Part shown: positions 197-64,000 of the stretch, one piece after another
Position numbering within the stretch: position 1 is the first letter of the stretch
Layout: every line of letters starts with the position of its first letter
NCBI GenBank assembly: GCA_009694955.1
Contig: SIBZ01000002.1
Location: forward strand, 1,418 to 65,417
Reading direction: 5' to 3'
DNA from: Candidatus Tayloriibacteriota bacterium
Lineage (GTDB): Bacteria > Patescibacteriota > Minisyncoccia > Phycocordibacterales > UBA10002
Length of the DNA stretch: 64,000 nucleotides
Translations under genes and position numbers: made by a program
Notes under the pieces: model-generated
Seen by the model: the letters and a program-made list of their open reading frames with translations, nothing else
What the model was told of the DNA's origin: nothing
Databases searched by the model: none

Positions 197-381
197 AGAA
201 CTCATTTCAAAACCCTATCGCAATCCAAAGATTCGTGGTATTCGAGGAAAAAATGGTGCAGACGAGGGAGGTGTAGCGAGCTACTCCGACTGAGAATAAG
301 CAATTTTTTACCGAATACCGAGAATTGACGATGCGAAATGGCTTCGAAAAGCCTGCCATGGTAGGTTTTGAAATGAGTTCT
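197..381. repeat. Inverted-repeat-bounded element E1 (18-bp perfect arms, 149-nt interior) in the neuB'/gmhA divergent spacer
   Basis: AGAACTCATTTCAAAACC (197-214) is the exact reverse complement of GGTTTTGAAATGAGTTCT (364-381). The interior shares collinear blocks with E2 at 13858-14075. Confidence 0.65.
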
Positions 382-11655: not shown

Positions 11656-12807
11656 TCAATAGGTTATCACCTTCTGGATATCTGGTAACCGGACGGTTTC
11701 GAGAATATGCACCACTTTCTTGGCGGTTTCTCCCTGGTCATACGGGTTCGTGCCTGCTCGCACGTGTTTCCTGAATGCTTCGTCACAAAGTGCCTTTTCA
11801 ATCGCTTTGCGTATCGCGCCTTGGGTATTGGTCACGTCGAGCACGTTGGCCCCACGTTCCCTTCGCTGTTGACGGCTACCTATGTTGACAGTCGGTAGAT
11901 GAAAGAAAGGTGCTTCGTGTATTCCGGTGCTTGAATTTCCCACGAGCACGTCCGCGACATTGAGCAGTCTCAAGAAATCTTCGTACACGATGTGGGGAAA
12001 CACCCTAAACCCCGAACGTTTGAGGTACGTGATGATACGTCGTCCTCCCGCATCGGTATTGGAATAAATGGCGATAACCGCCGCGCGGTGCTTCTTTGCT
12101 ATGTGTCGTACCGCATCGACGCTTGCCCGAATGTGTTGCGTCACGTTGCCGATTTCCGTGGTGACGGGATGTTGCGAAAAAACGATGACTTTTTGCTCGG
12201 GGTCGAAACCATAGCGTTTCGCAATTTCGGCTTTGGACGGATAGCTAATGCTCCGCATCGTGTCGAGGCTCGGACTTCCGACGAGAAACACGTACCGAGG
12301 GTCTTCTCCAAGCTTAATAATTCTCTCTCTGCTTTGGGGAGTCGCCACAAAATGCACATGAGCGAACTTGGTGGTCGCGTGCCGGAGTATCTCATCTATA
12401 GTCCCGCTCACCTCTCCTCCTTGTATGTGAGCGACGTGGATATTCATATGCATGGCGGCGATGGCCGCGGCCAAATGCGCACCAAGGTCGAAACCGCAAA
12501 AGACAATGTCCGGCCGGAGCCGCTCTATCACATCCGCCATCCCGATAAGCGCGCGACCCATACCTTTCACCATTGAGGCTCCGTCATCACGGTCATGTTC
12601 ACTAAACATCGGAACGGTCGCGTCGATGGAAAAGCCGTCTCCTTCGATGACTTTCTTCGTCTCGCCGAATCCCTTGAGCAAATGCGAACCGGTTACGAGG
12701 AGCTGTACCGTAAGTTTCGGGCTCCGCCTTGCCAGGGTGAGTATCGGTTTAAGCCGACTGTAATCCGCTCGGCGCTCCGTGATAAACAATATTTTTCTTT
12801 TTTTCAT
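11656..12807 (-). CDS. neuC: UDP/GDP-N-acetylglucosamine 2-epimerase (hydrolysing), NeuC/LegG type
   Basis: ATG at 12807, in an ATGA overlap with the neuB stop. N-terminus KILFITERRADYSRLKPIL...VTGSHLLKGFGET, typical of NeuC. Confidence 0.85.
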   Translation of the reverse strand: MKKRKILFITERRADYSRLKPILTLARRSPKLTVQLLVTGSHLLKGFGETKKVIEGDGFSIDATVPMFSEHDRDDGASMVKGMGRALIGMADVIERLRPDIVFCGFDLGAHLAAAIAAMHMNIHVAHIQGGEVSGTIDEILRHATTKFAHVHFVATPQSRERIIKLGEDPRYVFLVGSPSLDTMRSISYPSKAEIAKRYGFDPEQKVIVFSQHPVTTEIGNVTQHIRASVDAVRHIAKKHRAAVIAIYSNTDAGGRRIITYLKRSGFRVFPHIVYEDFLRLLNVADVLVGNSSTGIHEAPFFHLPTVNIGSRQQRRERGANVLDVTNTQGAIRKAIEKALCDEAFRKHVRAGTNPYDQGETAKKVVHILETVRLPDIQKVITY

Positions 12808-13853
12808 CCGAGATGATTCCGTTTAAGATGGGTATCCTTTTTAATGAAGCGTTTTGCCCTGCACTTGAGGACTCGTTCGAATTCCGAAGCGAGTATTTCT
12901 CCCGTACCCGGGCGCTTCACCCAGACATTGTCGTAGCTGAACGATTCTCCTTCTCTGATATCCCGGATGGAAACGACCGTTGCGTACGCGAAATCAATGG
13001 TCGGCTGTTCCTCCTTGAGAATTGTCTTCTTTCCGCCTAGCGCCTTCCAGATGGCGCCGGTTCCTTTGATGAGTTCCTGAAGTTCACCCGGGTCTATAGA
13101 AATGGGCACATCGGGACCGGGCCACTTTTTGTCGGAGGTAAAATGCTTTTCGAATATCGAACCGCGGAGCGCCGTAGCGCCATAACAGGTATAGTTCAAG
13201 AGAGAGTGGTCGCTGAGTCCATACACCGCGTCGGGAAATTCTTTCGAAAGCTCGAGCATGGCATCGAGACGCACCTTTTCGTACGGGGTCGGATAGAGCG
13301 ACGTACAGTGCAGAAGAGCGAACGGGATGTTCGATGCACGGAGGATGCTGACGCTCTTCCGTATTGACGCGATATCATTCATCCCCGTGCTCAAAATGAC
13401 CGGTTTCCCGAATGAAGCAATATGCCTCAGGAGCGGGTAGTTGTTGCACTCACCGGAACCGATTTTGTAGGCTTGAACGCCGAGCTTCTCGAGCCGGTTT
13501 GCCGCCGCGCGCGAAAACGGAGTGGAGAGATAGAGCATACCGAGCTTTTCGACATAGTCCTTCAGCACCTTGTCTTCTTTCTCGGAAAGAGCGCACCTCT
13601 CCATAATATCCCAAATGGATTCCTCTGCGTTCCCGGGGATGACTTTTTTCGCCTCGGGAGTCATCTCATCCTCTATTACATGGCACTGGAATTTGACGCA
13701 TTCCGCTCCGGCTTCATACGCGTCTTTCACCATACGCTTCGCTTTCGCGAGGCTTCCCTCGTGATTAATGCCGATTTCGGGAATAACAAAAGGAGGAAAC
13801 TCCTTTCCTATTTTTCGTGTACCTATTTGTATGTAGGGGGCTTTGTTCGCCAT
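12804..13853 (-). CDS. neuB: Nonulosonate synthase (N-acetylneuraminate/legionaminate synthase family)
   Basis: ATG at 13853 (MANKAPYIQIG...). The track start at 13871 is a TTG. EIGINHEG motif present. The C-terminal SAF/antifreeze-like part reads RDIREGESFSYDNVWVKRPG. Confidence 0.9.
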   Translation of the reverse strand: MANKAPYIQIGTRKIGKEFPPFVIPEIGINHEGSLAKAKRMVKDAYEAGAECVKFQCHVIEDEMTPEAKKVIPGNAEESIWDIMERCALSEKEDKVLKDYVEKLGMLYLSTPFSRAAANRLEKLGVQAYKIGSGECNNYPLLRHIASFGKPVILSTGMNDIASIRKSVSILRASNIPFALLHCTSLYPTPYEKVRLDAMLELSKEFPDAVYGLSDHSLLNYTCYGATALRGSIFEKHFTSDKKWPGPDVPISIDPGELQELIKGTGAIWKALGGKKTILKEEQPTIDFAYATVVSIRDIREGESFSYDNVWVKRPGTGEILASEFERVLKCRAKRFIKKDTHLKRNHLG

Positions 13854-13857
13854 ATCG

Positions 13858-14075
13858 AGAACCCATCTCAAAATAAATGGCTAAGACAAACGTTCAAATT
13901 TCTGCCGAAAAAAGAGAAGCGCGAGGAGGCAGAGCAAGCTCTGTTGACGAGCGATGAGCTTTTTGCAGGCGAAATTTGGACGCTTGGGTAGCCAAGCGAT
14001 TCGTGACACAATCGAATAGAAAAAATGACTTTAATTTTATTCATATAATGAGCGGTTTATTTTGAGATGGGTTCT
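13858..14075. repeat. Inverted-repeat-bounded element E2 (20-bp perfect arms, 178-nt interior) filling the SDR-neuB intercistronic spacer
   Basis: AGAACCCATCTCAAAATAAA (13858-13877) is the exact reverse complement of TTTATTTTGAGATGGGTTCT (14056-14075). Homologous to E1 at 197-381. Confidence 0.7.
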
Positions 14076-16982: not shown

Positions 16983-17615
16983 CTAGATAAGCTGGGTGAA
17001 ATTCCGTATAAGCTGGAGTCCCGCTTCCCCGCTCTTTTCGGGATGGAACTGGCAACCATAGATATTCCCCTTCCGGATGACTGAGCAAAACTCTGTTCCG
17101 CCATACGACGAGAGGCCCAGTATATTTTCTTTCCGGCTCGGCTTGAAGATATAGGAATGAGTAAAGTACATACGTGGCTTCTCTCCGGGAACGAGGATAC
17201 TTCCCTCCCAGGATGTCTCCGTGCCTGGATAGACCTCATTCCATCCAACTTCGGGTATTTTTTCCTTGACTGCATCCGCATCAAACCGGACAACTTCCCC
17301 TTCGATAATACCGAGCCCGTCAAAGACTCCGAATTCGTGCCCTTGCTCGAGCATGAGCTGTGCTCCGAGACAGATGCCGAGCATCGGACGATTATGCACC
17401 GCGACATGTTGTACCGCCTCCGTAAGATTGCGGAGCTTCAAGCCGCGCATTCCCGCTTCGAACGAACCGACTCCCGGAAGAATCACTGCATCGGACACCC
17501 GAATCTCTTCCGCATCCTCGGAAATGATTGCATCGAAACCAAGGTGCGCGAAAGCCTTCTTCAGGCTCTGCAGATTTCCGACTCCGTAATCAACGATGGT
17601 TATTCTAGAAGCCAT
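16983..17615 (-). CDS. hisH: Glutamine amidotransferase subunit, imidazole-glycerol-phosphate-synthase HisH family (glycan-cluster paralog)
   Basis: ATG at 17615, 210 aa. ITIVDYGVGNL, PGVGSF and GICLGAQ (catalytic Cys) motifs present. Confidence 0.85.
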   Translation of the reverse strand: MASRITIVDYGVGNLQSLKKAFAHLGFDAIISEDAEEIRVSDAVILPGVGSFEAGMRGLKLRNLTEAVQHVAVHNRPMLGICLGAQLMLEQGHEFGVFDGLGIIEGEVVRFDADAVKEKIPEVGWNEVYPGTETSWEGSILVPGEKPRMYFTHSYIFKPSRKENILGLSSYGGTEFCSVIRKGNIYGCQFHPEKSGEAGLQLIRNFTQLI

Positions 17616-38527: not shown

Positions 38528-39514
38528 TTAAAAATCAATTATATGCGTACGGGCCCCCTTCCTATCTACCGAGAAAGAAATTTCTTTGAGCGCGGACGGA
38601 GCGAGCGCCTTCCGCACCGAGTCGGCGGAAGCACTTGTCGGGCAATAAAACATAAAGTAGCCTCCTCCTCCCGCGCCGATAATTTTCCCTCCGAGCGCTC
38701 CGGCTTTTTTTGCGGTATCGTACATCTGATTGAGTCCATCGTTACTCATGGTTGCCGACATCCCCCGCTTCAAGCGCCAATGCGTATCCAAAAGCCTGCC
38801 GAACGAATCGAGGTCGCCGTCGAGAAAGGAACGGTAAATGTCGAGGCCGATTTCTTTTATTTTGTGCTTCAGCTCTTTCGTTTCCGGTGTGTTTTGTTTG
38901 GTAAGCAACGGTTCGCTGTCGCGCCGGATACCGGTGTAAAAAAGCAGGGTGTTTTTCTCGAATGAAGACACAACATCGGGAGGAATCTCGGGCTTCTCTA
39001 CTCTCACCGTGCCGTCCTTGTCGATACGCAACACCACAAACCCTCCAAGCGCGCAGACGTAGGGGTCTTGTTTTCCGTCGGGTAAGCCGAGATTCTGCGT
39101 CAGCCGGAACGAGTCCTCGGCCGCCTGTAAATTACTCATCTCTTTTCCTTTGAATAACGAGAGCCCCTTGAGAAGCCCAACGGAACACGCGCCCGATGAA
39201 CCAAGTCCTGTTCCGGAGGGAGTGTCCGCGTTGAGTGAAATGAGCACTTTGTCGCTCACCTTTGTCATCTTGAGCGCCTCCCTACCGATGGTATGCTTGA
39301 TATGTTCCACTTTGGATTCGAACTCATACTGCAGATAGTGCATATGGATACAGTCGTCCACCACCGGCTCTTTAATGAGAATATCCATATATAAATCTAT
39401 CGCCACGGCGAAGATAAACCCTCCGTGCTCTGCGTAGTACGATGGCAGGTCGGTCGAACCTCCGCCAAGCGGTAACCGGAATGGCACCCTGCTTAAAATA
39501 ATCCTTCGTTTCAT
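38528..39514 (-). CDS. GHMP-family sugar kinase (D-glycero-D-manno-heptose-7-phosphate kinase HddA-like)
   Basis: ATG at 39514, in an ATGA overlap with the upstream stop. SRVPFRLPLGGGSTDLP N-terminus; GHMP motif PSGTGLGSSGA. Confidence 0.8.
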   Translation of the reverse strand: MKRRIILSRVPFRLPLGGGSTDLPSYYAEHGGFIFAVAIDLYMDILIKEPVVDDCIHMHYLQYEFESKVEHIKHTIGREALKMTKVSDKVLISLNADTPSGTGLGSSGACSVGLLKGLSLFKGKEMSNLQAAEDSFRLTQNLGLPDGKQDPYVCALGGFVVLRIDKDGTVRVEKPEIPPDVVSSFEKNTLLFYTGIRRDSEPLLTKQNTPETKELKHKIKEIGLDIYRSFLDGDLDSFGRLLDTHWRLKRGMSATMSNDGLNQMYDTAKKAGALGGKIIGAGGGGYFMFYCPTSASADSVRKALAPSALKEISFSVDRKGARTHIIDF

Positions 39515-40650
39515 AGTGTTGCTCGTTTCTTCTCAAGTGCCCGCACCTCGGCGAGGAGTTTTTTTGCCGTCGTCACGGAAGTAATAATCTTACCACTTAA
39601 AATGGACCAGCACCCATACCCGTGGTATGTGCACTCGGTCGGTCGGGCGTCAGCTTCGTTCGACGCCACATCAATGGGAAGCACGATGAACATCGACGCG
39701 ACGTACTGCGCCTTCGCAAGTACGGGAAACCATCGCTCGCACCGCGCGAACATCTCTTTCCACCGCGATACGGGATGCTTCCAGTTACGGGCGGAAGCGC
39801 TTCTTACGCGCGAGGTCTTCTTGTGGATGGAAAGTGGGACGTCTCCGAGCGTATATAAGTCGCGCTTCCCCGGGATGGGCACGAGCGTCGCGAAAGGGCC
39901 GTCCATAATGGTAACCGCGACACGTGGCTTTGTCCGGATACGGACGATAACGAGCTCCTTGAAACGAAATTCCAACCGGCGCAACGGAAAATGAAGCCAC
40001 CGGCAAAAATCGTTATACTGGCTGTATGTGGCATTAATGACGTACTCAAAAGCGTACTCTTTCTTCCGCCCCGACTGGAGGACGGTCAGCACTTTTTCTC
40101 CCTGTGGGCCAATTCGCGCGCCGGTAACTTCGTGTTTGAGTTTGAGAGTAACGCGTTCCTTCTTAAGCCGATGCCTGATGAGACGTTTCAGTCTGCTGTA
40201 ATCATAGGTTGCCTCAGAAGTTTTCACGGAAAGGTCGACGGTTGACGCATCCAAAAATTCCGCGTCTGGGTACTCTCGTACGTACGGAAGTCCCATCCTG
40301 TCGCAGGTCTTCAGGAACGCTTCCGCGGTTACCCGGGACCCTTCGGCATTGATGCAATAGTAGCTCGGGAATTCCGAGGATATGGCGGAACCGTAGAATC
40401 GTTTGAAGTCGGGAGCGGCTTCCTTAATTTCCCGTATTGTCTCGGTACTGCGCGGATAGTGATACCCCCCGTGATGCCGGTATTGATTCGCGTATGTCGC
40501 TCCGCCCAGAATATCGTCGCCCTGTTCAAAAAGCGTGACATCGAAATGCTTTCCGAGCATGAGCGCAGCGGTCGCGCCGAAAATCCCTCCACCGATAATA
40601 CCTATCCGCGCAGGCTTTTGTTGTGCTGTTGCTGTGCGTGCCGCTGTCAT
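39511..40650 (-). CDS. FAD-dependent oxidoreductase (DAO-like)
   Basis: Dinucleotide-binding N-terminus IGIIGGGIFGATAALML. I chose the ATG at 40650; a GTG at 40656 directly abuts the upstream stop and is an alternative start. Confidence 0.75.
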   Translation of the reverse strand: MTAARTATAQQKPARIGIIGGGIFGATAALMLGKHFDVTLFEQGDDILGGATYANQYRHHGGYHYPRSTETIREIKEAAPDFKRFYGSAISSEFPSYYCINAEGSRVTAEAFLKTCDRMGLPYVREYPDAEFLDASTVDLSVKTSEATYDYSRLKRLIRHRLKKERVTLKLKHEVTGARIGPQGEKVLTVLQSGRKKEYAFEYVINATYSQYNDFCRWLHFPLRRLEFRFKELVIVRIRTKPRVAVTIMDGPFATLVPIPGKRDLYTLGDVPLSIHKKTSRVRSASARNWKHPVSRWKEMFARCERWFPVLAKAQYVASMFIVLPIDVASNEADARPTECTYHGYGCWSILSGKIITSVTTAKKLLAEVRALEKKRATL

Positions 40651-40652
40651 AC

Positions 40653-41579
40653 TCACTTATTTTCGCGTATATGCCGGACCATATAAGGAGAGCGGTGTAT
40701 CATAACATAATAGACCCGGAGCAGTACCTCGGCCAAAAGTCCCATCATAAAGAGAAGAATACCGAGAATCATAAACATCGTCCCGATAACGGGAAGTGGT
40801 GTTTCGCTGAGGTTCGCAACGTGCATAAAACGGAGCACCACCGAAGAGACGAAAACAAGGAGTGAAAACCCGACAAAGGCGACGCCCCAGCCTCCAAAAA
40901 AACGCAACGGTTTTTGAAAGTATTTGACGAAAAAAGCGATACTGAGGAGGTCGAATCCACCCTTAATCATATTGGCGATTCGTATCTTCGACATACCGGC
41001 CTGCCGGACATAATGCTGAATGGGAATCTCTTTGATACGCGCGCCTTTTTCTTTCGCGACAGCAGGGAGAAACACCTGCGCGTCGCCCCACAAACGGAAG
41101 TCTTTTATGAATTTACTGCGGTATATCTTGAGACCGCTCCCGAAATCGTGCACGTCGACGCCCAAAACGGCGCGTGAGACACTATTGGCAAAATACGAAA
41201 ACACGACGCGCGTCCAGTGATCGTGCCGTACTTGGCGCCATCCGATAATCACGTCAACGTCTTCCGAAAGCTCCGAAAGAAGTCTTGGGATATCCGCGGG
41301 GTCGTGTTGCAGGTCCGCGTCAAGGAGGACAAGGATATCTCCCTTTGCTTCCTGTATGCCGACGTCGAGCGCGGGCGTCTCGCCGTAATTTCTTTGGAGT
41401 GAAATCACTTTGACCGGACAAAGGCCTTCCGTTTCTTTTTCCGTTTCGTCGGTCGAGCCGTCATTCACGAAGATGATTTCATAGGCGTGAGTGGTCTTTG
41501 CCATCGCCATGACGATACGCCGGTGCAATTCGCGCACCATCCGTGCTTCGTTGTACATGGGGACGACAATGGAAATCAT
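40653..41579 (-). CDS. GT2 polyprenyl-phosphate glycosyltransferase (GtrB/ArnC type, C-terminal TM helices)
   Basis: ATG at 41579, in an ATGA overlap with the DegT stop. ISIVVPMYNE, NDGSTDET and DADLQHD motifs, with two C-terminal TM helices. Confidence 0.85.
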   Translation of the reverse strand: MISIVVPMYNEARMVRELHRRIVMAMAKTTHAYEIIFVNDGSTDETEKETEGLCPVKVISLQRNYGETPALDVGIQEAKGDILVLLDADLQHDPADIPRLLSELSEDVDVIIGWRQVRHDHWTRVVFSYFANSVSRAVLGVDVHDFGSGLKIYRSKFIKDFRLWGDAQVFLPAVAKEKGARIKEIPIQHYVRQAGMSKIRIANMIKGGFDLLSIAFFVKYFQKPLRFFGGWGVAFVGFSLLVFVSSVVLRFMHVANLSETPLPVIGTMFMILGILLFMMGLLAEVLLRVYYVMIHRSPYMVRHIRENK

Positions 41580-42676
41580 AGTTCAAAATCTTTTATACTC
41601 TTCACGACGTATGCGAGCTCTTCGTCGAGGAGCTCCGGGCAGAGCGGTAAAGAAAGAATCTCTGTCGCAAGCATTTCGGTGACCGGTACCGACCCTTTCG
41701 CGTAGCCGAGCTCTGTATATATCGGTTGCATATGAATCGGCACCGGATAGTGTATCCCCGTACTGACCCCTTTTTCTTTGAGAAAGGCTTGGAGTGCGTC
41801 TCGTTTTTTACTCCGGATGACAAACAGATGGCACGCCGACTCCGCTCCAGAAATGACGTCCAAAACCTTAACCGAACTGCCTGAAAGAAGCGCGGTATAC
41901 CGGACAGTGAGTTCCCTTCTCTTTTCAATCCAAGACGGAAGGTGGCGCAATTTAACGCGGAGAATCGCCGCCTGTATGGTATCCAACCGCGAATTCACCC
42001 CCCATGTTATGTAGTGGTCCCGCTGTTTACTACCATACGTTCGGTACATCCGAACCTTTTCCGCAAGTTTCGGGTCGTCCGTCACAACCGCTCCGCCGTC
42101 GCCGTATCCTCCCAAATTCTTACTCGGGAAAAAGCTGAATGCGGCGATGTCGCCGAGTGTCCCCGCACTCTTCCCGTGATAGCGGGCGCCGTGTGCCTGG
42201 CAGGCGTCTTCCACAATTCGCAGGTTGTGTTTTTTGGCAATGGCAATGATTGGGTGCATATCGGCGGGTTGTCCGTACAGATGGACGAGAACAATCGCTT
42301 TGGTACGGAAAGTGATTTTTTCTTCGAGCTTCTTCGCGTCCAGGTTGCATGTCCGCTCATCCACGTCGACAAAGACGGGCACCGCGCCGAGCATTGAAAT
42401 CGTTGTCGCGGTAGACACGAACGAATTGGCAACCGTGATGACCTCATCGTCTTTCGAAATGCCGAGCGCTTTCAAAGATAGGAGAAGCGCGTCCGTACCG
42501 GACGCGACTCCGACGCACTGCTTCGCTCCGCAAAAGGTTGCGAACTCTTCTTCGAACAGTTTGACCTCCTCGCCAAGCACATACGTCCCGCTTGCAAGCA
42601 CGCGCAAAACAGCCTGGTCAATCTCATTCCGGTACCGCTCATAGCTTCTTTTCAGATGTACCAGTTCAATGTTCAT
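41576..42676 (-). CDS. DegT/DnrJ/EryC1/StrS-family sugar aminotransferase
   Basis: ATG at 42676 (MNIELVHLKRSY); the track extension to 42733 was rejected. Has the FFPSKNLG block with the PLP lysine. Confidence 0.9.
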   Translation of the reverse strand: MNIELVHLKRSYERYRNEIDQAVLRVLASGTYVLGEEVKLFEEEFATFCGAKQCVGVASGTDALLLSLKALGISKDDEVITVANSFVSTATTISMLGAVPVFVDVDERTCNLDAKKLEEKITFRTKAIVLVHLYGQPADMHPIIAIAKKHNLRIVEDACQAHGARYHGKSAGTLGDIAAFSFFPSKNLGGYGDGGAVVTDDPKLAEKVRMYRTYGSKQRDHYITWGVNSRLDTIQAAILRVKLRHLPSWIEKRRELTVRYTALLSGSSVKVLDVISGAESACHLFVIRSKKRDALQAFLKEKGVSTGIHYPVPIHMQPIYTELGYAKGSVPVTEMLATEILSLPLCPELLDEELAYVVKSIKDFEL

Positions 42677-42716
42677 ACAATAGCCCTCCAGCCCGCGAAC
42701 GATATGCGCTGTCCGA

Positions 42717-43328
42717 TTACTTTGTCTGCTCAATCGACTCCCACTTCCCTTTTTGCTTCAGGAACAGAGGGTGACTAACGATTAAGTGCCATATAACGGC
42801 TTGGAAACTTTCCGTATGCGGAGTCACGGTATCGGCATTCACCGTGGGCACCACCACACAAGCATCCGCCACCTGCTTCGTATATCCCCCGTCGCGCCCG
42901 ACGATGCCGAGCACCTTCGCCCCGACGCTCTTCGCGTATTTGACTCCCGAGACGATATTGATGCTTATCTTCTTTTCGGCATTTCCCCCTCCGACCGAGA
43001 ACACCAGCACGGCATCTTGTGCGGACAGAAAACTGCCTTTCAGCCATTCGGTCATGACCTCCTCCCATCCGTCATCGTTTACCCGCGCCGAAAATTCCGA
43101 GATATTGTCCATCGGCGTATACGCTTCAATCCCCGCGATTTTCCGGAAGTCGTTCACGGCATGACTCGCGTGCCCCGCACCGCCACCAACGCCGAGAATG
43201 AAAAGTCTTCCGCGCGCGTCCCGCACCGCTTTCAGAAGCTCAATCATCCGTTCAATGGAAGGACGGTCAAGTCCATCTACGACGCGTTTCGTCTCCGCAA
43301 GATATTGTTCTATATAAGGAAGATACAT
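42717..43328 (-). CDS. SIS-domain sugar-phosphate isomerase (divergent from GmhA)
   Basis: ATG at 43328 (MYLPYIEQYL); the track start at 43343 is a TTG. FILGVGGGAGHASHAVNDF and VFSVGGGN are SIS motifs. Confidence 0.75.
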   Translation of the reverse strand: MYLPYIEQYLAETKRVVDGLDRPSIERMIELLKAVRDARGRLFILGVGGGAGHASHAVNDFRKIAGIEAYTPMDNISEFSARVNDDGWEEVMTEWLKGSFLSAQDAVLVFSVGGGNAEKKISINIVSGVKYAKSVGAKVLGIVGRDGGYTKQVADACVVVPTVNADTVTPHTESFQAVIWHLIVSHPLFLKQKGKWESIEQTK

Positions 43329-43335
43329 AGTGGTA

Positions 43336-43364
43336 AGTATCAATGCTCAAGTATCAATTTTCAA
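43336..43364 (-). promoter_or_regulatory. Candidate sigma70-like promoter giving a leaderless or near-leaderless SIS mRNA
   Basis: The minus strand reads TTGAAA-17 nt-GATACT-7 nt-ATG(43328). Confidence 0.35.
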
Positions 43365-43385
43365 ACGAAGACAAGAGAGACCTAC

Positions 43386-43408
43386 TTGATAATTGACACT
43401 TGATAATT
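43386..43408. repeat. 23-nt AT-rich repeat, copy A (TTGATAATTGACACTTGATAATT)
   Basis: Differs at one base from copy B at 62807-62829. Both abut the stop codon of the upstream minus-strand gene. The same spacer also carries two AAGTATCAAT copies (43334-43343 and 43349-43358). Confidence 0.55.
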
Positions 43409-43410
43409 TC

Positions 43411-44133
43411 TTATAAACGGTAACCTGCTTGCTTGCCGTCTTCATAAAACATCTTCACGGTATCGAGTGAAAGTTTTCCGACATCGTAGCCCCACTTTTC
43501 CAATTTTTTCAGAATATCATTCGGCACGGTGATAATATGGCATCCTACTTTCTCCGCCTGCGCGATATTGTGCACTTCGCGCGTACTCGCCCAGAGAAGC
43601 TCTGCTTTTTTATTTTTCGCGAGGAGCGCCTTCGCTTTTTTCATAAGCGGAACAGGGTCCCTCCCCGTGTCTGCAACTCGCCCCGCAAACACTGAGACAA
43701 TGGATGCGGTCTTCGGCGAGAGTGCTTTTGCTGTCGCCTGTACCTGCTGTAGCGTGAGAATCGCGGTTACATTTACTTTGATGCCACGTGATGCCAGTCG
43801 TTTGACAAGTGGAAGCGAAGATTCTCCTTTCGTATTCGTAATCGGAATCTTCACGTATACATGTTCTCCCCAAGAGGCGATAAGCTGTGCCTGCCGTTCC
43901 ATCTCGGAGAAGTCGTCGGAGAACACTTCAAACGAAATCGATTTGTCCGGAATCGCCTCGACAATCTCTTTGGCGAACGCCTTGTAATCCGATACCCCGC
44001 CTTTGTGCATCAGCGTCGGGTTCGTGGTAAAACCTTTGATAAAAGGTTTTTTGGATAGCAGAAGCATTGAGGACTTTTCCGCCCCGTCCGCGAAGATGTG
44101 TATTTTCAACGAGTTAATCTGTGGTATGGCCAT
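43411..44133 (-). CDS. Transaldolase (short FSA/TalC-type)
   Basis: ATG at 44133, 240 aa. FADGA...GFTTNPTL and VKIPIT (Schiff-base Lys region) motifs present. Confidence 0.85.
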   Translation of the reverse strand: MAIPQINSLKIHIFADGAEKSSMLLLSKKPFIKGFTTNPTLMHKGGVSDYKAFAKEIVEAIPDKSISFEVFSDDFSEMERQAQLIASWGEHVYVKIPITNTKGESSLPLVKRLASRGIKVNVTAILTLQQVQATAKALSPKTASIVSVFAGRVADTGRDPVPLMKKAKALLAKNKKAELLWASTREVHNIAQAEKVGCHIITVPNDILKKLEKWGYDVGKLSLDTVKMFYEDGKQAGYRL

Positions 44134-44221
44134 AGTTGCGCACGTATGATAACCGCAGACGCAGGGGAATCATTACGGGGAATGAGCGTCTGTATGCGTG
44201 AGATTGTATACTTTCCGGCCT

Positions 44222-44259
44222 AAATAAACAACAAAAATGGCCGTTGGGTTTCCAACGGC
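44222..44259 (-). terminator. Rho-independent terminator after the orphan gene
   Basis: The minus strand reads GCCGTTGG-AAAC-CCAACGGC (perfect 8-bp stem, 44240-44259) followed by CATTTTTGTTGTTTATTT. It lies 20 nt after the stop at 44279. Confidence 0.7.
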
Positions 44260-44278
44260 ACAGTGTATCTCGGTGACC

Positions 44279-44779
44279 TCAGACAGCGTCAATCTGTTTG
44301 ACTACCGAGACAAGTTCTCTCTCTTCTATCGTGCGCTGGAGACCGAGCCACTCGCTGAGTGAGTGACCTTTTGGGGATTTATGAATGGTTACCCGAGCAT
44401 GGTTCACGAAGGTCTGAACTTGTAGCACATAGTGGACTTGAACTAGTTGTTGCGCTGGCAACTCCTCACAAAGCTCAGTAACTGACTTTCTCACGGGAAA
44501 CCATGCTTCCACTAATCTCCACAAAAACGCCTTCAGTTTGCTTGTTGATACGGACGCGACGGTTGTTGCAATGCACCGACCTTGTGTGTCCAGAAACAGG
44601 AAGTCTTGCTGCATACCGTAATCCATGAATCCGCCTGTCCCTACCTCGAGCAGGAGTTTCCTGTCCACTCGCTCCACTGTCACAGAGACTTCTGACCTCT
44701 GTAGCGATATCCCGAACCTGGAGAGGTGCGGTTCGAGCCAGGGGAACTCTTTGTTGAATGCTTCATTCTTTGGTATCAT
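44279..44779 (-). CDS. Hypothetical protein, 166 aa, no recognisable domain
   Basis: ATG at 44779, preceded by the only canonical AAGGAG seen in the window. Has its own terminator and is flanked by non-coding stretches of 145 and 244 bp. Confidence 0.6.
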   Translation of the reverse strand: MIPKNEAFNKEFPWLEPHLSRFGISLQRSEVSVTVERVDRKLLLEVGTGGFMDYGMQQDFLFLDTQGRCIATTVASVSTSKLKAFLWRLVEAWFPVRKSVTELCEELPAQQLVQVHYVLQVQTFVNHARVTIHKSPKGHSLSEWLGLQRTIEERELVSVVKQIDAV

Positions 44780-44783
44780 TTTT

Positions 44784-44789
44784 CTCCTT
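44784..44789 (-). promoter_or_regulatory. Shine-Dalgarno sequence AAGGAG of the orphan gene
   Basis: The minus strand reads TAAGGAGAAAA-ATG. Confidence 0.5.
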
Positions 44790-45023
44790 ATAGCGACTCC
44801 GCTGTATGTGCATCTTCAAGCATCCCGCCTGAAGAAGGCACGGGTTACATGACTAGACAACCCTCTCATCCCGAGAGCGGTTGTGGCCTCCTTTTATGAA
44901 AGAGCAACCATAATCATCTAAACATATCTGGAGCAATAAGTCAAGTATTCCGAACGGGTTTACGTAGTAGCACCTGAAAAAACACTTTTTTTAAAAGAGC
45001 CTCTAGGAACGGCTGGCGTGATG

Positions 45024-45629
45024 TCAGCGACCCTTTAGAAACACCTTCTCACCCTCGTGCGCGTGAAGGAGATGCGCGAAGATACCGGCAATGGTGGCGA
45101 GGTCTTTGATTTCCCCGCGAAGGATTTTCTGCACAACCTGTGCGGCGGTAAGTATGAGCGTCCCGACTCCCTGCTTTTCGTCCTGCCTGCCAAGCTGGGG
45201 AAGGGGTTTGCAATCAAAGGCGAGGAACAAGTGACACCGGTCGTCAATCCGGTCCGTTTCCGAATAAAAGCCGAATCGGTTAATCCTGACGAGACGTCCG
45301 GGGCGATAACCGGTTTCCTGCGCAAGCTCCATTTTGACAACCGCCTCCGCTTTTTTCTTGGTCTCATACACACCTCCTGCCGATTCGATACTCATACCCG
45401 CTATCGGCCGACATTGCTCTGTCAGCACGAATCGCCCGTCGGTGAGACGAGCCGTGACGGATACGTATCCATTCCCTTTCATCCGTAAGATGAGGAAATT
45501 CTTAATCGTCTTGCCGTTATCAAAATGGACGTTCACCCGATGGGCCGAGAGCCACTTATCGTCGTGCAATACAGCGACAGGCTTAACCGTTCGTTTGCGG
45601 GCAACCGCCGGCGGGGTTCTTTTGGACAT
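45024..45629 (-). CDS. Nudix-fold hydrolase-like protein (degenerate Nudix box)
   Basis: ATG at 45629, 201 aa. GGVYETKKKAEAVVKMELAQETGY resembles GX5EX7REUXEEXGU, but with K and M at the first E and the R positions. Confidence 0.45.
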   Translation of the reverse strand: MSKRTPPAVARKRTVKPVAVLHDDKWLSAHRVNVHFDNGKTIKNFLILRMKGNGYVSVTARLTDGRFVLTEQCRPIAGMSIESAGGVYETKKKAEAVVKMELAQETGYRPGRLVRINRFGFYSETDRIDDRCHLFLAFDCKPLPQLGRQDEKQGVGTLILTAAQVVQKILRGEIKDLATIAGIFAHLLHAHEGEKVFLKGR

Positions 45630-45640
45630 CCGAGTATCAT

Positions 45641-45671
45641 AAAGAAAAAGCGAGGTTTATTCAACCCCGCT
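45641..45671 (-). terminator. Weak intrinsic-terminator-like hairpin after the radical SAM gene
   Basis: The minus strand reads AGCGGGG-TTGAATAAA-CCTCGCT (7 bp including one G.U) followed by TTTTCTTTAT. Confidence 0.4.
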
Positions 45672-45690
45672 CGTGTTGCACACTCGTGCG

Positions 45691-47238
45691 TTATACCGGA
45701 ACAGTGGGAGACGGCGCACCGCTTTCCCAGCGCACTCCCGCGCTTGCCAAAAGACGAGCACTGACGTGTCCCGATTTGTTCATATACTCCCATCCCCAGT
45801 CGCGTAGTTCCACAATCCGCTCTGGTGGCACCACGGTGTTTTCCAACACGCAGTTCTTCCAGTTGAGCCGGTCAGTATCGAAGTCTCCAGCGAGATGCCC
45901 GTGCTCGAGCGCGTACTCGTAGAGCATACTGCCCGGGAACGGAATCGGTATAAGGGGGGTGCAGTTTTCCGCACCGGCCTCCACCAACCGTTTTCCGAGC
46001 TCGAAACTCTGCATCATCTCCTCTTCGGTCTCGTCGGGAAATCCGACCATCATATTGACCGGGCAGGCAATACCGACCGCAACGGTCTTGCGTACCAGCT
46101 CCTCGACATCAAGGGTCGCGTGAGTAAGCTTCCCTGTCGCGTACTTGTTGAGAATGCGCTGTGAAGCCGACTCGACCGGGAACTCGATATGGTCGAAACC
46201 CGCCTCAACCAAGAGTGTCAGAAACTCCTCGTCAATGACGAGCCCCTCGCCTTCGCGCTTCTGGAAATGCGGAAGATTGACCCCGTTCACATCCGCAAGC
46301 GTGAAGCCCATACCGCGGGCTCGCTTGAAGATATCGATGATGCGCTTCTTATGCACAAAGAGCGTGTCATCTTCGAGGTAGAGTTTCGTCGTCCCGAGGG
46401 ACTTCAGCTGTGCAAGCTCGTCCATAACTCGCTCCACGGATTTGAAGCGGAGTGAACCGATACCTCCCCGCTCCTTCGCGTACTTTTTTTCGTGCGAGAT
46501 ATGACAGTAGAGGCAGGAAGCCCAGCATCCGCGCGAAGTCATCACTGGCCGATACCGTTCTCTCTTTGCGGAAAGGACGGCGTGGGGCGATGCAATCCGT
46601 TCGTAGTGAATGACGGGCAACTTTTCCCACGCGGGCATAGGTAATTCGTCGAGATATATGGAAACGTCGGAGGGAGTAACCGGCTCTGTGATGAAGTCAC
46701 CTCCATCGCCGATACGAATGATGCCGGAGACCCCACAAAGGTTCCTTTTTTCTTCCCACTTTTTGACGAGATTCACGATGATGCGTTCACCTTCGGTGAG
46801 GCACACTGCGTCCACACAGCCACTTTTGAGGAAACGCTCGGAAATACTCCTCGCGTTCACTCCTCCCGCGATAACCAAGATGTCTTGCGACACTTCCTTC
46901 GCCAGACGAGCGACGTCGAGCGCCATTCTTGTTTGCGGGGTGAAGTTCGAGCTTATGCCGACCACCGAGTAGCCACCGTTCGCAATCACTTCCCGCAAAC
47001 GTGCTTCACTCATCCCGATGCGGATAAGTCCGTTCTCCTGCATAACCGGTTTGAAAAATGTGTCTTCAAGCCGGTCCGCGTCCGTACCGACCGATGCATC
47101 GAGCACGTCAGTCTCGAAACCGGCTCGTTCAAGCGCGGAAGCGAGGTAGAGAGGTCCCAGTGACCCGTCGGGCCGGGGAGTCTCTACTCTCATCAGTTGA
47201 TTTGGCGGATAAATTAACAGTACTTTGTTTTTTGCCAC
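45691..47238 (-). CDS. B12-binding-domain radical SAM enzyme (class B, probable methyltransferase)
   Basis: GTG start at 47238. The N-terminus KVLLIYPP...GPLYLASALERAGFE is a cobalamin-binding-like Rossmann fold. Radical SAM cluster motif CWASCLYC (CX3CX2C). Confidence 0.85.
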   Translation of the reverse strand: MAKNKVLLIYPPNQLMRVETPRPDGSLGPLYLASALERAGFETDVLDASVGTDADRLEDTFFKPVMQENGLIRIGMSEARLREVIANGGYSVVGISSNFTPQTRMALDVARLAKEVSQDILVIAGGVNARSISERFLKSGCVDAVCLTEGERIIVNLVKKWEEKRNLCGVSGIIRIGDGGDFITEPVTPSDVSIYLDELPMPAWEKLPVIHYERIASPHAVLSAKRERYRPVMTSRGCWASCLYCHISHEKKYAKERGGIGSLRFKSVERVMDELAQLKSLGTTKLYLEDDTLFVHKKRIIDIFKRARGMGFTLADVNGVNLPHFQKREGEGLVIDEEFLTLLVEAGFDHIEFPVESASQRILNKYATGKLTHATLDVEELVRKTVAVGIACPVNMMVGFPDETEEEMMQSFELGKRLVEAGAENCTPLIPIPFPGSMLYEYALEHGHLAGDFDTDRLNWKNCVLENTVVPPERIVELRDWGWEYMNKSGHVSARLLASAGVRWESGAPSPTVPV

Positions 47239-47314
47239 AGATACCCTTGGGTTGATGTGTTGTCCGATTATGAAAGTCTATTGATGGAAACGAACTATCG
47301 TTTCTCAAAGAACA

Positions 47315-47998
47315 TTACATATTTCTATTGACTCTGTCAACGTCCGCGGGAGTCGAGAGGTACAGGTCCGGCTCGCCCATAACCGCGTAGACCGGAAATT
47401 TCTTAAGAAATTGATTTACCATCGACGTCAGGTACCACTCGCGTGTCCGTAGATGCCTTCTCGGCTTACACGCGAAAAGGCGCGCGGAGACGAGTATAAC
47501 GCCTCCGTCAGAAAGGCACGGCGGTGTGCAACCGAAACGTTCTTCGCGGACACCTATAATTCTTCCGTGCGCGTCGAGACGGACTCTCCCGGTCGGAATG
47601 GAGTGCGTGAGGGGGTGGCACAGCCAGCTGTACCGATGAGAAAGGCAGTCGCGCATATTTTGAGAAGACGGAAGTTCATCGCCGTGAATGATAAAGAAAC
47701 GCTCATCCGGATGTGTGAAAAAGTCGCGGGTGAGTAGCACCGCCCGCGCCGGCCCGTCAAAAACGGTTTGCGTGACGTAGTGGACGGCTCTTCCTGTATA
47801 CCGAGTACCGAGGTGTTTCTTGATGGTATCGCCCCGATACCCAACCACGACGATAACGTCGGTCACTTCTTTTGGCAGACTGTCGAAAATATGGTCGAGA
47901 ATCGGCTTCCCCCGCACGACAACGAGCGTCTTCGGGATGCTTGAGGTGAGCCGTCCCATCCTGCTCCCCTTTCCGGCAGCTAAAATAATCGCTTTCAT
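47315..47998 (-). CDS. Sugar-phosphate nucleotidyltransferase
   Basis: MKAIILAAGKGSRMG...IPKTLV. I chose the ATG at 47998; an in-frame ATG at 48013 is an alternative start. Confidence 0.8.
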   Translation of the reverse strand: MKAIILAAGKGSRMGRLTSSIPKTLVVVRGKPILDHIFDSLPKEVTDVIVVVGYRGDTIKKHLGTRYTGRAVHYVTQTVFDGPARAVLLTRDFFTHPDERFFIIHGDELPSSQNMRDCLSHRYSWLCHPLTHSIPTGRVRLDAHGRIIGVREERFGCTPPCLSDGGVILVSARLFACKPRRHLRTREWYLTSMVNQFLKKFPVYAVMGEPDLYLSTPADVDRVNRNM

Positions 47999-48063
47999 GC
48001 CGGTCGTTTTCATGCCGATAACAATAGTCTATTTTATGGTGAGCGCAAGGCGATACGCGTTTG

Positions 48064-48098
48064 CGGATACAAAAAGCCACTTCCCCCGCGGAAGTGGC
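48064..48098 (-). terminator. Rho-independent terminator after the P-loop kinase gene
   Basis: The minus strand reads GCCACTTCC-GCGGG-GGAAGTGGC (perfect 9-bp stem, 48076-48098) followed by TTTTTGTAT. It lies 18 nt after the stop at 48117. Confidence 0.75.
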
Positions 48099-48116
48099 CG
48101 TGACGATAATGCGAGA

Positions 48117-48737
48117 TTACTCCTCGAGAAACGCAAGGAGATTCTCCCAATCGATTTCCTTGTCCGTGTGCACAATGATAGAGGGGAGGTTCCCAAGATT
48201 TGTAGGCGCAGTACGTTCGCGTGCCCAGAATTCATTCCACCCATCCTTCAGGGCATCAATATCATGAGGTTCGCGCCGTGCTTGAATCCTCGCCTGGATG
48301 ACCTCTTTCGGCGCGGTGGCAAAAACTACTTTAAGGTTTACCGAATCCCCAAAGCGCGCTTTGAGTGCCGGAGCCACCACATGCTCAACATACCCCCATT
48401 CAATTTCCTTGGTGTATCCGCCTTCAAGCAGAGCGTGCTTACCCTGCGCGAGAAGGTCCATACCGACCATGAGGAGACAGTGGAGGCTCTGAAGACAAAC
48501 GCGCCTTGAGTAATGTTCCGACCTTCGTGTCCAGATTGTTCCGTTTTCCGGCAGGTAGGGAGCGAGCGTAACCCTCTCTTGATTCCTTCGTTCCCAAATA
48601 AAGGAGTTGATGATGGTGTCTCGGTTCAACACAACGGCATCTTGCGTTCTTTTCGCAATCCCGTGCAGTACCGTCGCCTTCCCGCTTGCCTGTACGCCCG
48701 CGCCCAAGATGAGCGTTGGCTTTTTGAGCGTTCTCAC
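48117..48737 (-). CDS. P-loop (AAA_33/zeta-toxin-like) kinase-fold protein with atypical Walker A
   Basis: GTG start at 48737, preceded by AAAGGA. 206 aa. The Walker A-like segment is GVQASGKAT, with Ala where Ser/Thr normally follows the Lys. Confidence 0.6.
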   Translation of the reverse strand: MRTLKKPTLILGAGVQASGKATVLHGIAKRTQDAVVLNRDTIINSFIWERRNQERVTLAPYLPENGTIWTRRSEHYSRRVCLQSLHCLLMVGMDLLAQGKHALLEGGYTKEIEWGYVEHVVAPALKARFGDSVNLKVVFATAPKEVIQARIQARREPHDIDALKDGWNEFWARERTAPTNLGNLPSIIVHTDKEIDWENLLAFLEE

Positions 48738-48800
48738 TGTGTTCCTTTCTGCGGCATAATGAGCCGCGCTTTCAGTTCTCTGGATGTAGTGATAACACTT

Positions 48801-49346
48801 CTATACCAATCCGTCAAGTATCTGGCCGAACCTCGGGTCGGTAAGCGAAGCAATCCGGTAATCGGCACCGAGTGAGGTGTTGTAGGATGTTGAGAGAAGA
48901 ATACTCTTGCATCCGGCGGAAGTTGCCGCTCCGGTGTCGTACTCGGTATCTCCGAGCATACACGACTTCGAAAGGTCTATGTCCCATTTCTTCGCCGCTT
49001 GAAGCAACAGTCCGGGTTTGGGCTTTTTGCAGTCACACCCTTCTTCCCTGCCGTGGAAGCAGATAAAAATATCGTCAAACGGAAGCTTCGCAACCTCTGC
49101 TTGTATAGAGTCGAAATCTTCCTGTGTTATTTCTCCATAGTGAATATCCGGCTGATTGGTCGCGAGAATCGCAAGAAACCCGCGGTCACGCGCCGTTTGA
49201 ATTGCCTCATTTGCTCCCGGTATAATACCGCTCTGCTCTCTAAACTCCGCGATGCTTTGCGGAGCCTCCATCCTCCCCTTTTTGCAAAGCATCTTCAGTA
49301 TGACGCCGTCGCGGTCAAAAAATACCGCTTTTCTTTTGTTTGTCAT
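48801..49346 (-). CDS. gmhB: HAD-IIIA phosphatase, D-glycero-D-manno-heptose-1,7-bisphosphate phosphatase type
   Basis: ATG at 49346. FFDRDGVI, ATNQPDI and the Zn-finger-like CFHGREEGCDCKKPKPG motifs present. Confidence 0.8.
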   Translation of the reverse strand: MTNKRKAVFFDRDGVILKMLCKKGRMEAPQSIAEFREQSGIIPGANEAIQTARDRGFLAILATNQPDIHYGEITQEDFDSIQAEVAKLPFDDIFICFHGREEGCDCKKPKPGLLLQAAKKWDIDLSKSCMLGDTEYDTGAATSAGCKSILLSTSYNTSLGADYRIASLTDPRFGQILDGLV

Positions 49347-49347
49347 C

Positions 49348-50097
49348 TCAGTTTGTTTTTATGTGTACACCTTCTGATAGTCCGTGCTCACGCAGATACG
49401 CTTCAACCTCCCGCCATTTCTCGATCGTATCGATTCCCTTTGAATAGTCGTCGCACTCATAGGCAAAAAAGGGTAACCCCTTGGATACAATATCGGGGAG
49501 AAGATGCTTCCCTATCTCGTACGGCACGTTGGGTGGGATATGTGAGAGGATGGTTTTGCGCAGTATGAAGACGCCCCGCATACGGTACACGTGCGAATAC
49601 TCCCGCGTATGCGGTTTTGGGTGGATGGCGAGGAAACGCCCGTCCGCGCCGACCTCCGCCACATCGGCGTCCGCGTACTCGCGCGTTTCTTTCATCCGTT
49701 GCATACCGAGCGTTGTACGGGGAAGTTTCTCCCACGCCTCACGCATTTTCGAATAATCGACAAGGCTGAACGTGTCGCCGTACACGAGAAAAAACTCCTC
49801 ATCGAGCTTGCCTTCAAATCCCTTAAGCCCTCCGGCGGTACCGAGCGGTTTCTGCTCGAACGAGTAGGTAATCCGTACATCCCATTTTGAACCGTCGCCA
49901 AAATAATCCGTAATGACCTTCGGGAGGTAGTGCGTGTTGATGCAAAACGAGTGCACGCCGTGTTTCTTAAACTGTTCAATATGCCACAGGAGAAGCGGTT
50001 TCCCCAAAATGGGAATCATCACTTTTGGCACGGTGTCCGTGTACGGACGGAGCCTGGTTCCAAGTCCCGCGCATAGTATGACAGCTTGCGTACTCAT
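49348..50097 (-). CDS. Sugar-1-phosphate nucleotidyltransferase (HddC / mannose-1-P guanylyltransferase-like)
   Basis: ATG at 50097, in an ATGA overlap with the upstream stop. AVILCAGLGTRLRPYTDTVPKVM and LGTAGG motifs present. Confidence 0.8.
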   Translation of the reverse strand: MSTQAVILCAGLGTRLRPYTDTVPKVMIPILGKPLLLWHIEQFKKHGVHSFCINTHYLPKVITDYFGDGSKWDVRITYSFEQKPLGTAGGLKGFEGKLDEEFFLVYGDTFSLVDYSKMREAWEKLPRTTLGMQRMKETREYADADVAEVGADGRFLAIHPKPHTREYSHVYRMRGVFILRKTILSHIPPNVPYEIGKHLLPDIVSKGLPFFAYECDDYSKGIDTIEKWREVEAYLREHGLSEGVHIKTN

Positions 50098-62721: not shown

Positions 62722-62806
62722 AGAAACAAATTTTCAATTATCAATTATCAAAGAATCTTTAAGTATGAGATTCAAAGAAATTAAGAATTAAAAAATTGAT
62801 TGAAAA

Positions 62807-62829
62807 TTGATAATTGAGACTTGATAATT
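62807..62829. repeat. 23-nt AT-rich repeat, copy B (TTGATAATTGAGACTTGATAATT)
   Basis: One mismatch to copy A at 43386-43408. It overlaps the stop codon (62828-62830) of the upstream gene. The spacer also has TATCAATTATCAA at 62739-62751. Confidence 0.55.
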
Positions 62830-63782: not shown

Positions 63783-63832
63783 CTTAAACCGCCGACAGGA
63801 TGGCTATGTTAGGCCTTGTCTTCTTTTTTGTG

Positions 63833-63864
63833 TAGCACTAGTGGGCACGTGTCCACTAGTGCTA
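63833..63864. repeat. 32-bp near-perfect palindrome (candidate operator)
   Basis: TAGCACTAGTGG-GCACGTGT-CCACTAGTGCTA has perfect 12-bp arms and a CACGTG centre; only one central pair is non-complementary. It lies 88-119 nt upstream of the ATG at 63745 and just upstream of the candidate promoter. Confidence 0.6.
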
Positions 63865-64000
63865 AACTGGTGAGCAGGAAAATAGATAACGCTGTAGCTA
63901 TTTTCTCACTACCAACGCCTCCCACACTTCAATCTGTTTTTGTATGTGCTCTTCCTTTGTCGGAAGTCCCTTAAATGCTTTAAAGGCGGCTTCGCCGAGC

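Follow-up and report, generated by a model that had tools for sequence, protein, structure and literature searches.

E1, a palindromic element of 185 bp at positions 197–381 of the 64,000-nucleotide stretch of DNA analysed here (the window), is probably one copy of a dispersed, non-coding, hairpin-forming repeat, a MITE/REPIN-like mobile element of a Parcubacteria clade made up of Taylorbacteria and their relatives. The family to which it belongs is a previously undescribed, lineage-restricted and structure-constrained palindromic repeat, and its dispersal, insertion polymorphism, conserved termini and compensated secondary structure are directly observed in the collected copies. In the proposed mechanism, a transposase acting in trans would recognise the conserved termini of 16–24 bp and move the element in DNA form, with insertion at TA, often within YTAR or CTAG, a pattern typical of IS630/Tc1-mariner-type elements. 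The conserved fold would mean that a single-stranded state (cruciform, ssDNA or RNA) is important either in movement or in making the element tolerable to its host. E1 itself would have landed in a divergent spacer, where it now separates neuB′ from gmhA.

The two genes on either side of E1 are neuB′, a NeuB-family gene on the minus strand with its ATG at 153, and gmhA, which encodes a SIS-domain protein on the plus strand with its ATG at 407. The distances from E1 to these start codons are 43 nt and 25 nt, respectively, as given in the first-pass annotation. That annotation described the NeuB paralog as truncated; it is cut by the window edge alone, and the full contig encodes a NeuB-domain protein of 288 aa. 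The divergent spacer would be ~68 nt long without E1. E1 fills most of it and therefore must overlap or abut the promoters, much as had been argued before.

The terminal arms of E1, AGAACTCATTTCAAAACC at 197–214 (5′ side of helix P1) and GGTTTTGAAATGAGTTCT at 364–381 (3′ side), are 100% complementary, in agreement with the perfect pairing reported earlier. The palindromic features are given here without a strand. Across the family the left arm is near-invariant at 16 of its 18 positions, and its positions 6 and 10 covary with their partners. Further inverted segments had been noted inside the element and are found at 231–255 versus 301–325 (25 nt, 76%). The proposal that the whole 185 nt could zip into one long imperfect hairpin also holds, in the form of a branched hairpin fold with a z-score of about −7: when compared with shuffles, the 201-nt stretch containing E1 folds at −71.6 kcal/mol on the plus strand (z −7.4) and at −61.1 kcal/mol on the minus strand (z −6.2). 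We considered whether the palindrome could have arisen by chance in AT-rich intergenic DNA, as the spacer has a GC content of only 38%. The 18-mer AGAACTCATTTCAAAACC occurs at two sites in the 64 kb, both of them E1 arms, where shuffled sequences give 0.05 matches. The other large spacers of the window have fold z-scores of about 0 and no comparable structure, versus −6 to −10 for the elements, and homologous copies are present in 17 independent metagenome loci. The chance reading is thus refuted, and the probability that we would still assign to it is negligible.

A BLAST search of E1 against the 64-kb window returned its own arms as the sole matches. A search pattern common to E1 and to the diverged element E2 described below (AGAACNCATNTCAAAA, 25–45 nt, GAAAAAA, 6–12 nt, CGAGG) was scanned against JGI metagenomes and gave the 17 loci, with about 12 further distinct copies. 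Two patterns gave 0 matches in viral contigs, and plasmid and phage collections had no match to the family. Copies obtained by extraction, profile search and arm search range from 163 to 372 nt, with nhmmer profile scores of 77–204 bits; extraction and the profile alone had given complete copies of 163–306 nt. E1 is a complete copy scoring 182 bits against the family profile. The profile missed the 372-nt copy of locus L089, which was recovered by the arm search; a further inverted copy is present in L095. E1 is 86–90% identical to the copies from five other metagenome loci, and same-strain contigs of other samples carry E1 and E2 in identical form. The NeuB protein beside E2 shares 100% identity with one from a metagenome-assembled Candidatus Taylorbacteria genome. 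Within the window, no third copy was found by the profile and no further GAAC...GTTC arm pair is present; nor were solo or distant arm pairs found in 0.7 Mb of fetched loci. No autonomous partner that joins these termini to a transposase gene was encountered in these searches, a point against the mobile-element reading.

The host genomes are related, Parcubacteria/Taylorbacteria-like. Their orthologous proteins share 55–82% amino-acid identity with those of the window, and element nucleotides are ~89% identical between genomes at this level of protein divergence. The best matches of the TGT protein beside the L097 copy are Parcubacteria and Paceibacterota proteins. Loci L093 and L094 are syntenic with window positions 16986–38527 and L095 with 38531–49358; much of the window between 17 and 49 kb is syntenic with these three loci. 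From ~21 kb to the window end, the genes form a single large and conserved block for surface glycans and the cell envelope; nearly all genes between 21000 and 63745 are on the minus strand, with spacers mostly <100 nt. Two further repeats were seen close to the window end. A 90-nt spacer of 19% GC between two minus-strand genes (62738–62827) holds about four inverted copies of TTGATAATT/AATTATCAA, which look like an operator- or iteron-like array, and a near-perfect 19+19-nt palindrome with zero spacer, GTGTAGCACTAGTGGGCAC/GTGTCCACTAGTGCTAAAC, is located at 63830–63867.

The genes next to the copies are mutually unrelated. They include an amino-acid kinase/M24 peptidase pair, TGT/UvrB, an H+-pyrophosphatase, a bPH protein, DnaX, DUF5674/M29 peptidase, PBP1 and a methyltransferase, along with the glycan genes encoding PseB-like, GT1, FkbM and epimerase proteins. 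Where the neighbours are co-directional, the element is in the sense orientation at ~6 sites and antisense at 4; two copies, E1 and that of L098, are in divergent spacers. Stop codons are abutted or overlapped by the copies L095b, L092 and L089a. Copies are found at junctions that are empty in the window and belong to the glycan cluster it has in common with these relatives, namely after an FkbM-like gene (L100), before a PseB-like gene (L087) and after a methyltransferase gene (L094), in loci that are syntenic or orthologous to window genes. The copies have most of the features expected of MITEs: they are shorter than ~500 bp and have no coding capacity, they have conserved terminal inverted repeats, and they show insertion polymorphism between relatives. 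The first-pass annotation had named genome-wide copies with typical MITE behaviour as the finding that would count against its own view. Such copies were largely what was encountered, in related metagenomic genomes and not in this genome, of which 64 kb were covered. A literature search on MITEs or structured repeats in Patescibacteria/Parcubacteria returned nothing relevant.

Several copies are seen per genome neighbourhood. Identical copies carry at least three different 5′ flanks, and three contigs of a single metagenome (L090, L092 and L097) all stop at precisely 126 nt within the element, just ahead of the variable P5 hairpin; such different flanks and contig breaks are as assemblers behave at multi-copy repeats. 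The L100 contig also ends inside the element. Two copies lie within ~1 kb of each other in both L095 and L089, and two are present in the 64-kb window. In L095, a copy links the 5′ flank known from L094 with the 3′ flank of the L084 copy and is itself the exact L084 variant. This combination suggests that copies have undergone homologous recombination or that the assembly is chimeric at the repeat.

In L095 (12004–13180), two inverted copies bracket an 800-bp segment with a 111-aa ORF and a gene for a 91-aa ArsR-like HTH protein, in a layout similar to that of a composite transposon or cassette. The repeat ACATACTT..GAGATTGT precedes both the 111-aa ORF and the ArsR-like gene. In L089 (8364–9461), a bPH_2-domain gene lies between two direct copies of 163 nt and 372 nt, and the first base of the downstream copy lies within the TAA stop codon of this gene. 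A perfect TATAAT, facing an outward 155-aa ORF, is found 16 nt from the 5′ end of the large L089 copy.

The termini of the family read (C)TA-GAAC.CAT..CAAAA ... TTTTG..ATG.GTTC-TA(G), and the arm AGAAC.CAT..CAAAA with its complement is present in every complete copy. At the junctions the consensus is C-TA-GAAC ... GTTC-TA-G(TA). Of the copies, 13 of 16 have TA at their 5′ side and 10 of 13 at their 3′ side; TA is on both sides in 9 of the 14 complete copies when E1 and L089a are read with A-GAAC as the 5′ end. The flanks past TA are mostly unlike each other. E1 does have ATTA on both sides, and it had been asked whether this was a target-site duplication. The repeat could indeed mark a target site: its TA part recurs across the family and the full ATTA does not. 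The ATTA...ATTA around E1 is consistent with TA plus chance. It should be mentioned that the flanking TA could be a frayed end of the palindrome, which gives the same pattern as a target duplication where an empty site is lacking. Elements of the IS630/Tc1-mariner group duplicate TA, and IS630 prefers CTAG (PMC2170065 and references cited there). We treat the likeness of the family's TA/CTAG junctions to IS630 as a lead and not as proof.

Among known systems, the family comes closest to REPINs and to bacterial MITEs with flanking TA, of which Correia elements are an example. MITEs derived from IS630/Tc1-mariner elements, for example the Correia elements (CREE) of Neisseria, are likewise short and non-coding with terminal inverted repeats, dispersed between genes in both orientations with insertion polymorphism, and bordered at both junctions by TA, often CTAG-like. 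In both, the whole element can form a long hairpin on transcription, and the ends may give promoter boxes. The present family differs from them in having no similarity in plasmid and phage collections or in Rfam, and in that its TA duplication is a candidate only. It further differs from ordinary MITEs in its covarying stems, its conserved internal loops and its host, a candidate-phyla-radiation lineage. To our knowledge, covarying stems together with conserved internal loops are not required of ordinary MITEs. The ERIC/IRU repeats of enterobacteria are imperfect palindromes of ~127 bp or more in transcribed intergenic regions, found in either orientation and with size variants at fixed sites. 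In general terms, they resemble the family in the palindrome, the orientation and the fixed-site variants, and are unrelated to it in sequence and taxon.

The second copy in the window, E2, was found at 13858–14075 (218 bp; 83 bits with nhmmer; arms of 24–31 nt). The earlier view of E1 and E2 as sisters is correct, as both belong to one dispersed repeat family, even though they have almost no common primary sequence beyond the arms and the central core. Two arm differences between E1 and E2 are each compensated on the partner arm. With the other family copies, E2 shares 50–61% identity at most. It folds at −95.4 kcal/mol on the plus strand (z −10.2) and −72.8 kcal/mol on the minus strand. It has TA on neither side, which counts against the mobile-element reading.

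E2 spans the junction between an SDR gene and a NeuB gene, starting 2 nt past the SDR stop and ending 4 nt before the NeuB ATG. In the closest relatives, where the gene order is cytidylyltransferase, SDR, NeuB and NeuC, this spacer measures 98 nt (L004), 0 nt (L101, a direct SDR stop/NeuB start) and 109 nt (L102), compared with 224 nt here, and E2 is absent from the SDR/NeuB junction in all three. E2 is therefore an insertion and not a conserved neuB leader. E2 lies within an operon, and any operon transcript would contain a 29-bp helix that stops 4 nt short of the start codon of NeuB, where L101 has its direct stop/start junction. It is noted that the NeuB-family protein at 12807–13853 (Pfam NeuB, 9e-72), like some of its homologues, carries the NCBI name 'polyhydroxyalkanoate biosynthesis repressor PhaR', which is probably a propagated misannotation.

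Both window copies adjoin the start of a neuB-type gene, and about 6 of 15 sites are in glycan-synthesis clusters (PseB-like, GT1, FkbM, epimerase and the two NeuB genes). These positions could suggest that E1 serves neuB-type or gmhA genes of nonulosonic-acid and heptose synthesis as a dedicated cis-regulatory leader or as a riboswitch-like element. To evaluate this, we inspected neuB loci in species-representative genomes, 80 in all, of which 12 belong to the candidate phyla radiation; the closest Taylorbacteria relatives were covered too. The arm motif is in 0 of the 80 loci, no long inverted repeat is present upstream of neuB in any of the 12 candidate-phyla-radiation loci, and the closest relatives do not have the element at this place either, which argues against a link to neuB. 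The idea of a dedicated neuB′/gmhA leader or regulator implied in the first-pass annotation is not supported by these data, nor by the copies in both orientations beside unrelated, mostly housekeeping, genes. A riboswitch or leader would be expected at a fixed place and orientation before functionally related genes; the element has no such placement.

The sequence GA(A/G)ATG(A/G)GTTCT, which had been seen just before the neuB-type start in both E1 and E2, is indeed shared by them. It is simply the terminal arm of the element, separated from the ATG by 43 nt in E1 and by 4 nt in E2. The sole ORF in E1, a Shine-Dalgarno-plus-ATG reading frame of 7 codons (MVQTREV), is not conserved, its ATG being ACG in L086 and L098; a leader peptide or type I toxin was rejected on this ground. 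The regulatory reading is largely refuted by the gene contexts, and we hold it to be very improbable.

The arms may have had a local effect at E1. Each arm has an outward-facing TTGAAA 8 nt from the end of the element. On the minus strand at 183–210, a candidate hybrid neuB′ promoter combines the TTGAAA of the arm (210–205) as −35 with a 16-nt spacer and a −10 box, TATACT, in the flank (188–183). It has 10 of 12 matches to a sigma-70-type consensus and is ~25 nt upstream of the neuB′ ATG. Judged from these boxes, the E1 arm may supply the −35 element of neuB′. Only a weak TACAAA is present at the right spacing on the gmhA side. A good −10 at the right spacing was found at only 2 of 30 element ends; this layout is not general across copies and would be a local co-option at most, and an outward hybrid promoter was rejected as a general property of the family. 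The flanks 154–196 and 382–406 have no recognisable Shine-Dalgarno sequence for neuB′ or gmhA outside E1. With the gmhA ATG 25 nt from the end of E1, its transcript may have little or no leader. In any transcript that reads through E1, a stable hairpin would form, at about −70 kcal/mol.

The fold of the element is composed of P1, formed by the terminal arms, a long arm from P1b to P4, and a side hairpin, P5. P1b pairs TCGCAATC at 218–225 with GATGCGA at 330–336, with 92% of cells paired and zero double changes. P2 pairs GATTCGTGGTATTCGAG (230–246) with CCGAATACCGAGAATT (311–326) and has compensatory double changes in 10 of its 15 pairs. P3 joins an A-run at 249–257 to a T-run at 300–308. The purine-rich core at 263–294, C-GA-GG-GA-GG ... 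CC-GA-CU-GA-G, surrounds the tip hairpin P4, GTAG-CGAG-CTAC; the core loops are 94–99% conserved, whereas covariation is seen in the tip stem and the loop at the tip is variable. P5, at 338–359, is a hairpin of ATGGC ... GCCAT with a variable loop. The GGCTT-CGAA-AAGCC hairpin singled out by the first-pass annotation is real in E1 and is not kept in other copies, which retain ATGGC/GCCAT (338–342 with 355–359).

RNAalifold applied to an 11-copy alignment returned the arms, the 15-bp helix P2 and the tip hairpin, with double changes in 19 pairs. When the E1-derived structure (P1, P1b, P2, P3, P4 and P5) was imposed, 93.1% of cells were paired over 62 pairs, 19 of them with double changes. None of 500 shuffles reached the observed values, and slid controls gave 34–47% paired, a comparison that is somewhat flattering because the structure came from E1; the double changes in P2 and the tip stem are independent of the E1-derived structure. 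Conservation among the ten E1-like copies is 94–100% in the junctions and core internal loops, 86% in P2, 88% in P5, 68–74% in the tip loops and 62% in the flanks. The core motifs are two tandem purine loops, C-GA-GG-(G/A)A-GG opposite CC-GA-C(C/U)-GA-G, and three CGAGGA motifs, and both tandem purine (GA) internal loops are kept even in the diverged E2. Size variants differ by inserted hairpins, whose positions are fixed: behind CGCAATCC, GAGGATA or TTTTTTACC, and within P5. From these alignments, the folded shape appears to be under selection. Conserved loops with covarying stems and variable tips are what one would expect of a folded nucleic acid with a function, and are more than a transposon would need if it were recognised only at its ends.

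Some weight, as a minority view, was given to the idea that the family is a mobile element with the three-way fold itself as its functional unit, either as a shape-recognised RNA or ssDNA for a novel recombinase or nuclease, or as a domesticated RNA module at operon junctions. The parts of such a fold are an invariant closing helix, a covarying long arm with two purine loops and three CGAGGA motifs, and the side hairpin. The E1 tip-loop TAGCGA resembles the CS-6 motif found in the single-strand origins of plasmids; other copies do not retain this likeness, and the candidate was rejected. Rejected as well was a retron msr-msd, whose architecture is superficially similar; the neighbours (gmhA, NeuB, TGT, UvrB and others) include no reverse transcriptase and the copies are dispersed.

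The loops and junctions being better conserved than P2 and P5, together with the variable tip loops and the fixed-site hairpin expansions, are more typical of functional structured RNA and count against the mobile reading. They would fit a structured RNA module used by the host (acting in processing or stability, binding a protein through its three CGAGGA loops, or encoding a small RNA) that spread by duplication and recombination and not by transposition. The purine loops retained in E2 point the same way, as does the plus strand, which folds 11–22 kcal/mol better in 7 of 11 copies; this energy advantage probably comes from the purine loops. The pair counts show no strand bias, with 20 G.U on the plus strand versus 18 A.C, equivalent to G.U on the minus strand. 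These even counts and the random orientation of the copies give no support to a strand-specific RNA, and a DNA-level hairpin, or a transcript hairpin working either way round, fits the strand data. The copies have no conserved promoter, terminator or flanks, and those that abut or overlap stop codons leave no room for signals of their own. No copy is kept at an orthologous site across species. In Rfam 15, the window has no match at gathering score; E1 has none at E ≤ 10, and those of E2 are at chance level, far below gathering. Hence we consider an RNA module of the host unlikely.

Also considered was a hairpin-type element mobilised in the form of single-stranded DNA, with no duplication of the target, by a REPIN-like HUH/Y1 enzyme (RAYT or IS200-type) or a similar mover with the fold as substrate. 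A DNA-level hairpin fits the even G.U counts better than a strand-specific RNA does, a clean TA...TA is missing in E2 and several other copies, and the strong covariation with arms fixed in sequence is as described for REPINs. Compensatory changes are common in mobile REPIN hairpins (PMC3116915). REPINs are REP doublets mobilised by RAYT, with invariant ends around a hairpin-constrained spacer. REPINs share with the family an extragenic location in many copies, and the hairpin with compensatory changes is present here in the 19 pairs. The paired small-palindrome REP units are not, as the arms are not self-palindromic and are not REP palindromes with a GTAG head. With lengths of 163–372 nt and a branched fold (P1, the long arm P1b–P4, and P5), the family is larger than typical REPINs. 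Its junctions are flanked by TA, on both sides in 9 of 14 complete copies under the A-GAAC reading given above, and no RAYT or Y1 was found among 28 flanking proteins scanned from these incomplete genomes. Movement as single-stranded DNA in this way is, in our judgement, an improbable account of the family.

Integron attC sites were compared as well. They are structure-defined imperfect palindromes ending in ...AAC and GTT... that function as folded single strands, and genes can be bracketed by copies, as in L089. They were rejected: the ends of the family, CTAGAAC ... GTTCTAG, do not have the RYYYAAC/GTTRRRY boxes beyond AAC/GTT, the length exceeds the 57–141 nt of attC, and the copies are scattered at housekeeping junctions in both orientations, with no arrays and no integrase seen.

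The reading of E1 as a MITE/REPIN-like mobile repeat bears on genomes that are small and tightly packed. In the candidate phyla radiation, mobile DNA and non-coding RNA are poorly charted, and in the window this family makes up two intergenic spacers that rank among the largest and most structured. In practical terms, such a repeat breaks metagenome assemblies and could wrongly be taken for a small RNA or a riboswitch. The unusually well-kept fold offers a tractable case for distinguishing selection as a DNA hairpin from selection as RNA. The family marks junctions at which surface-glycan clusters differ between relatives, and it appears to mediate rearrangements, as in the joining of the L094 and L084 flanks in L095.
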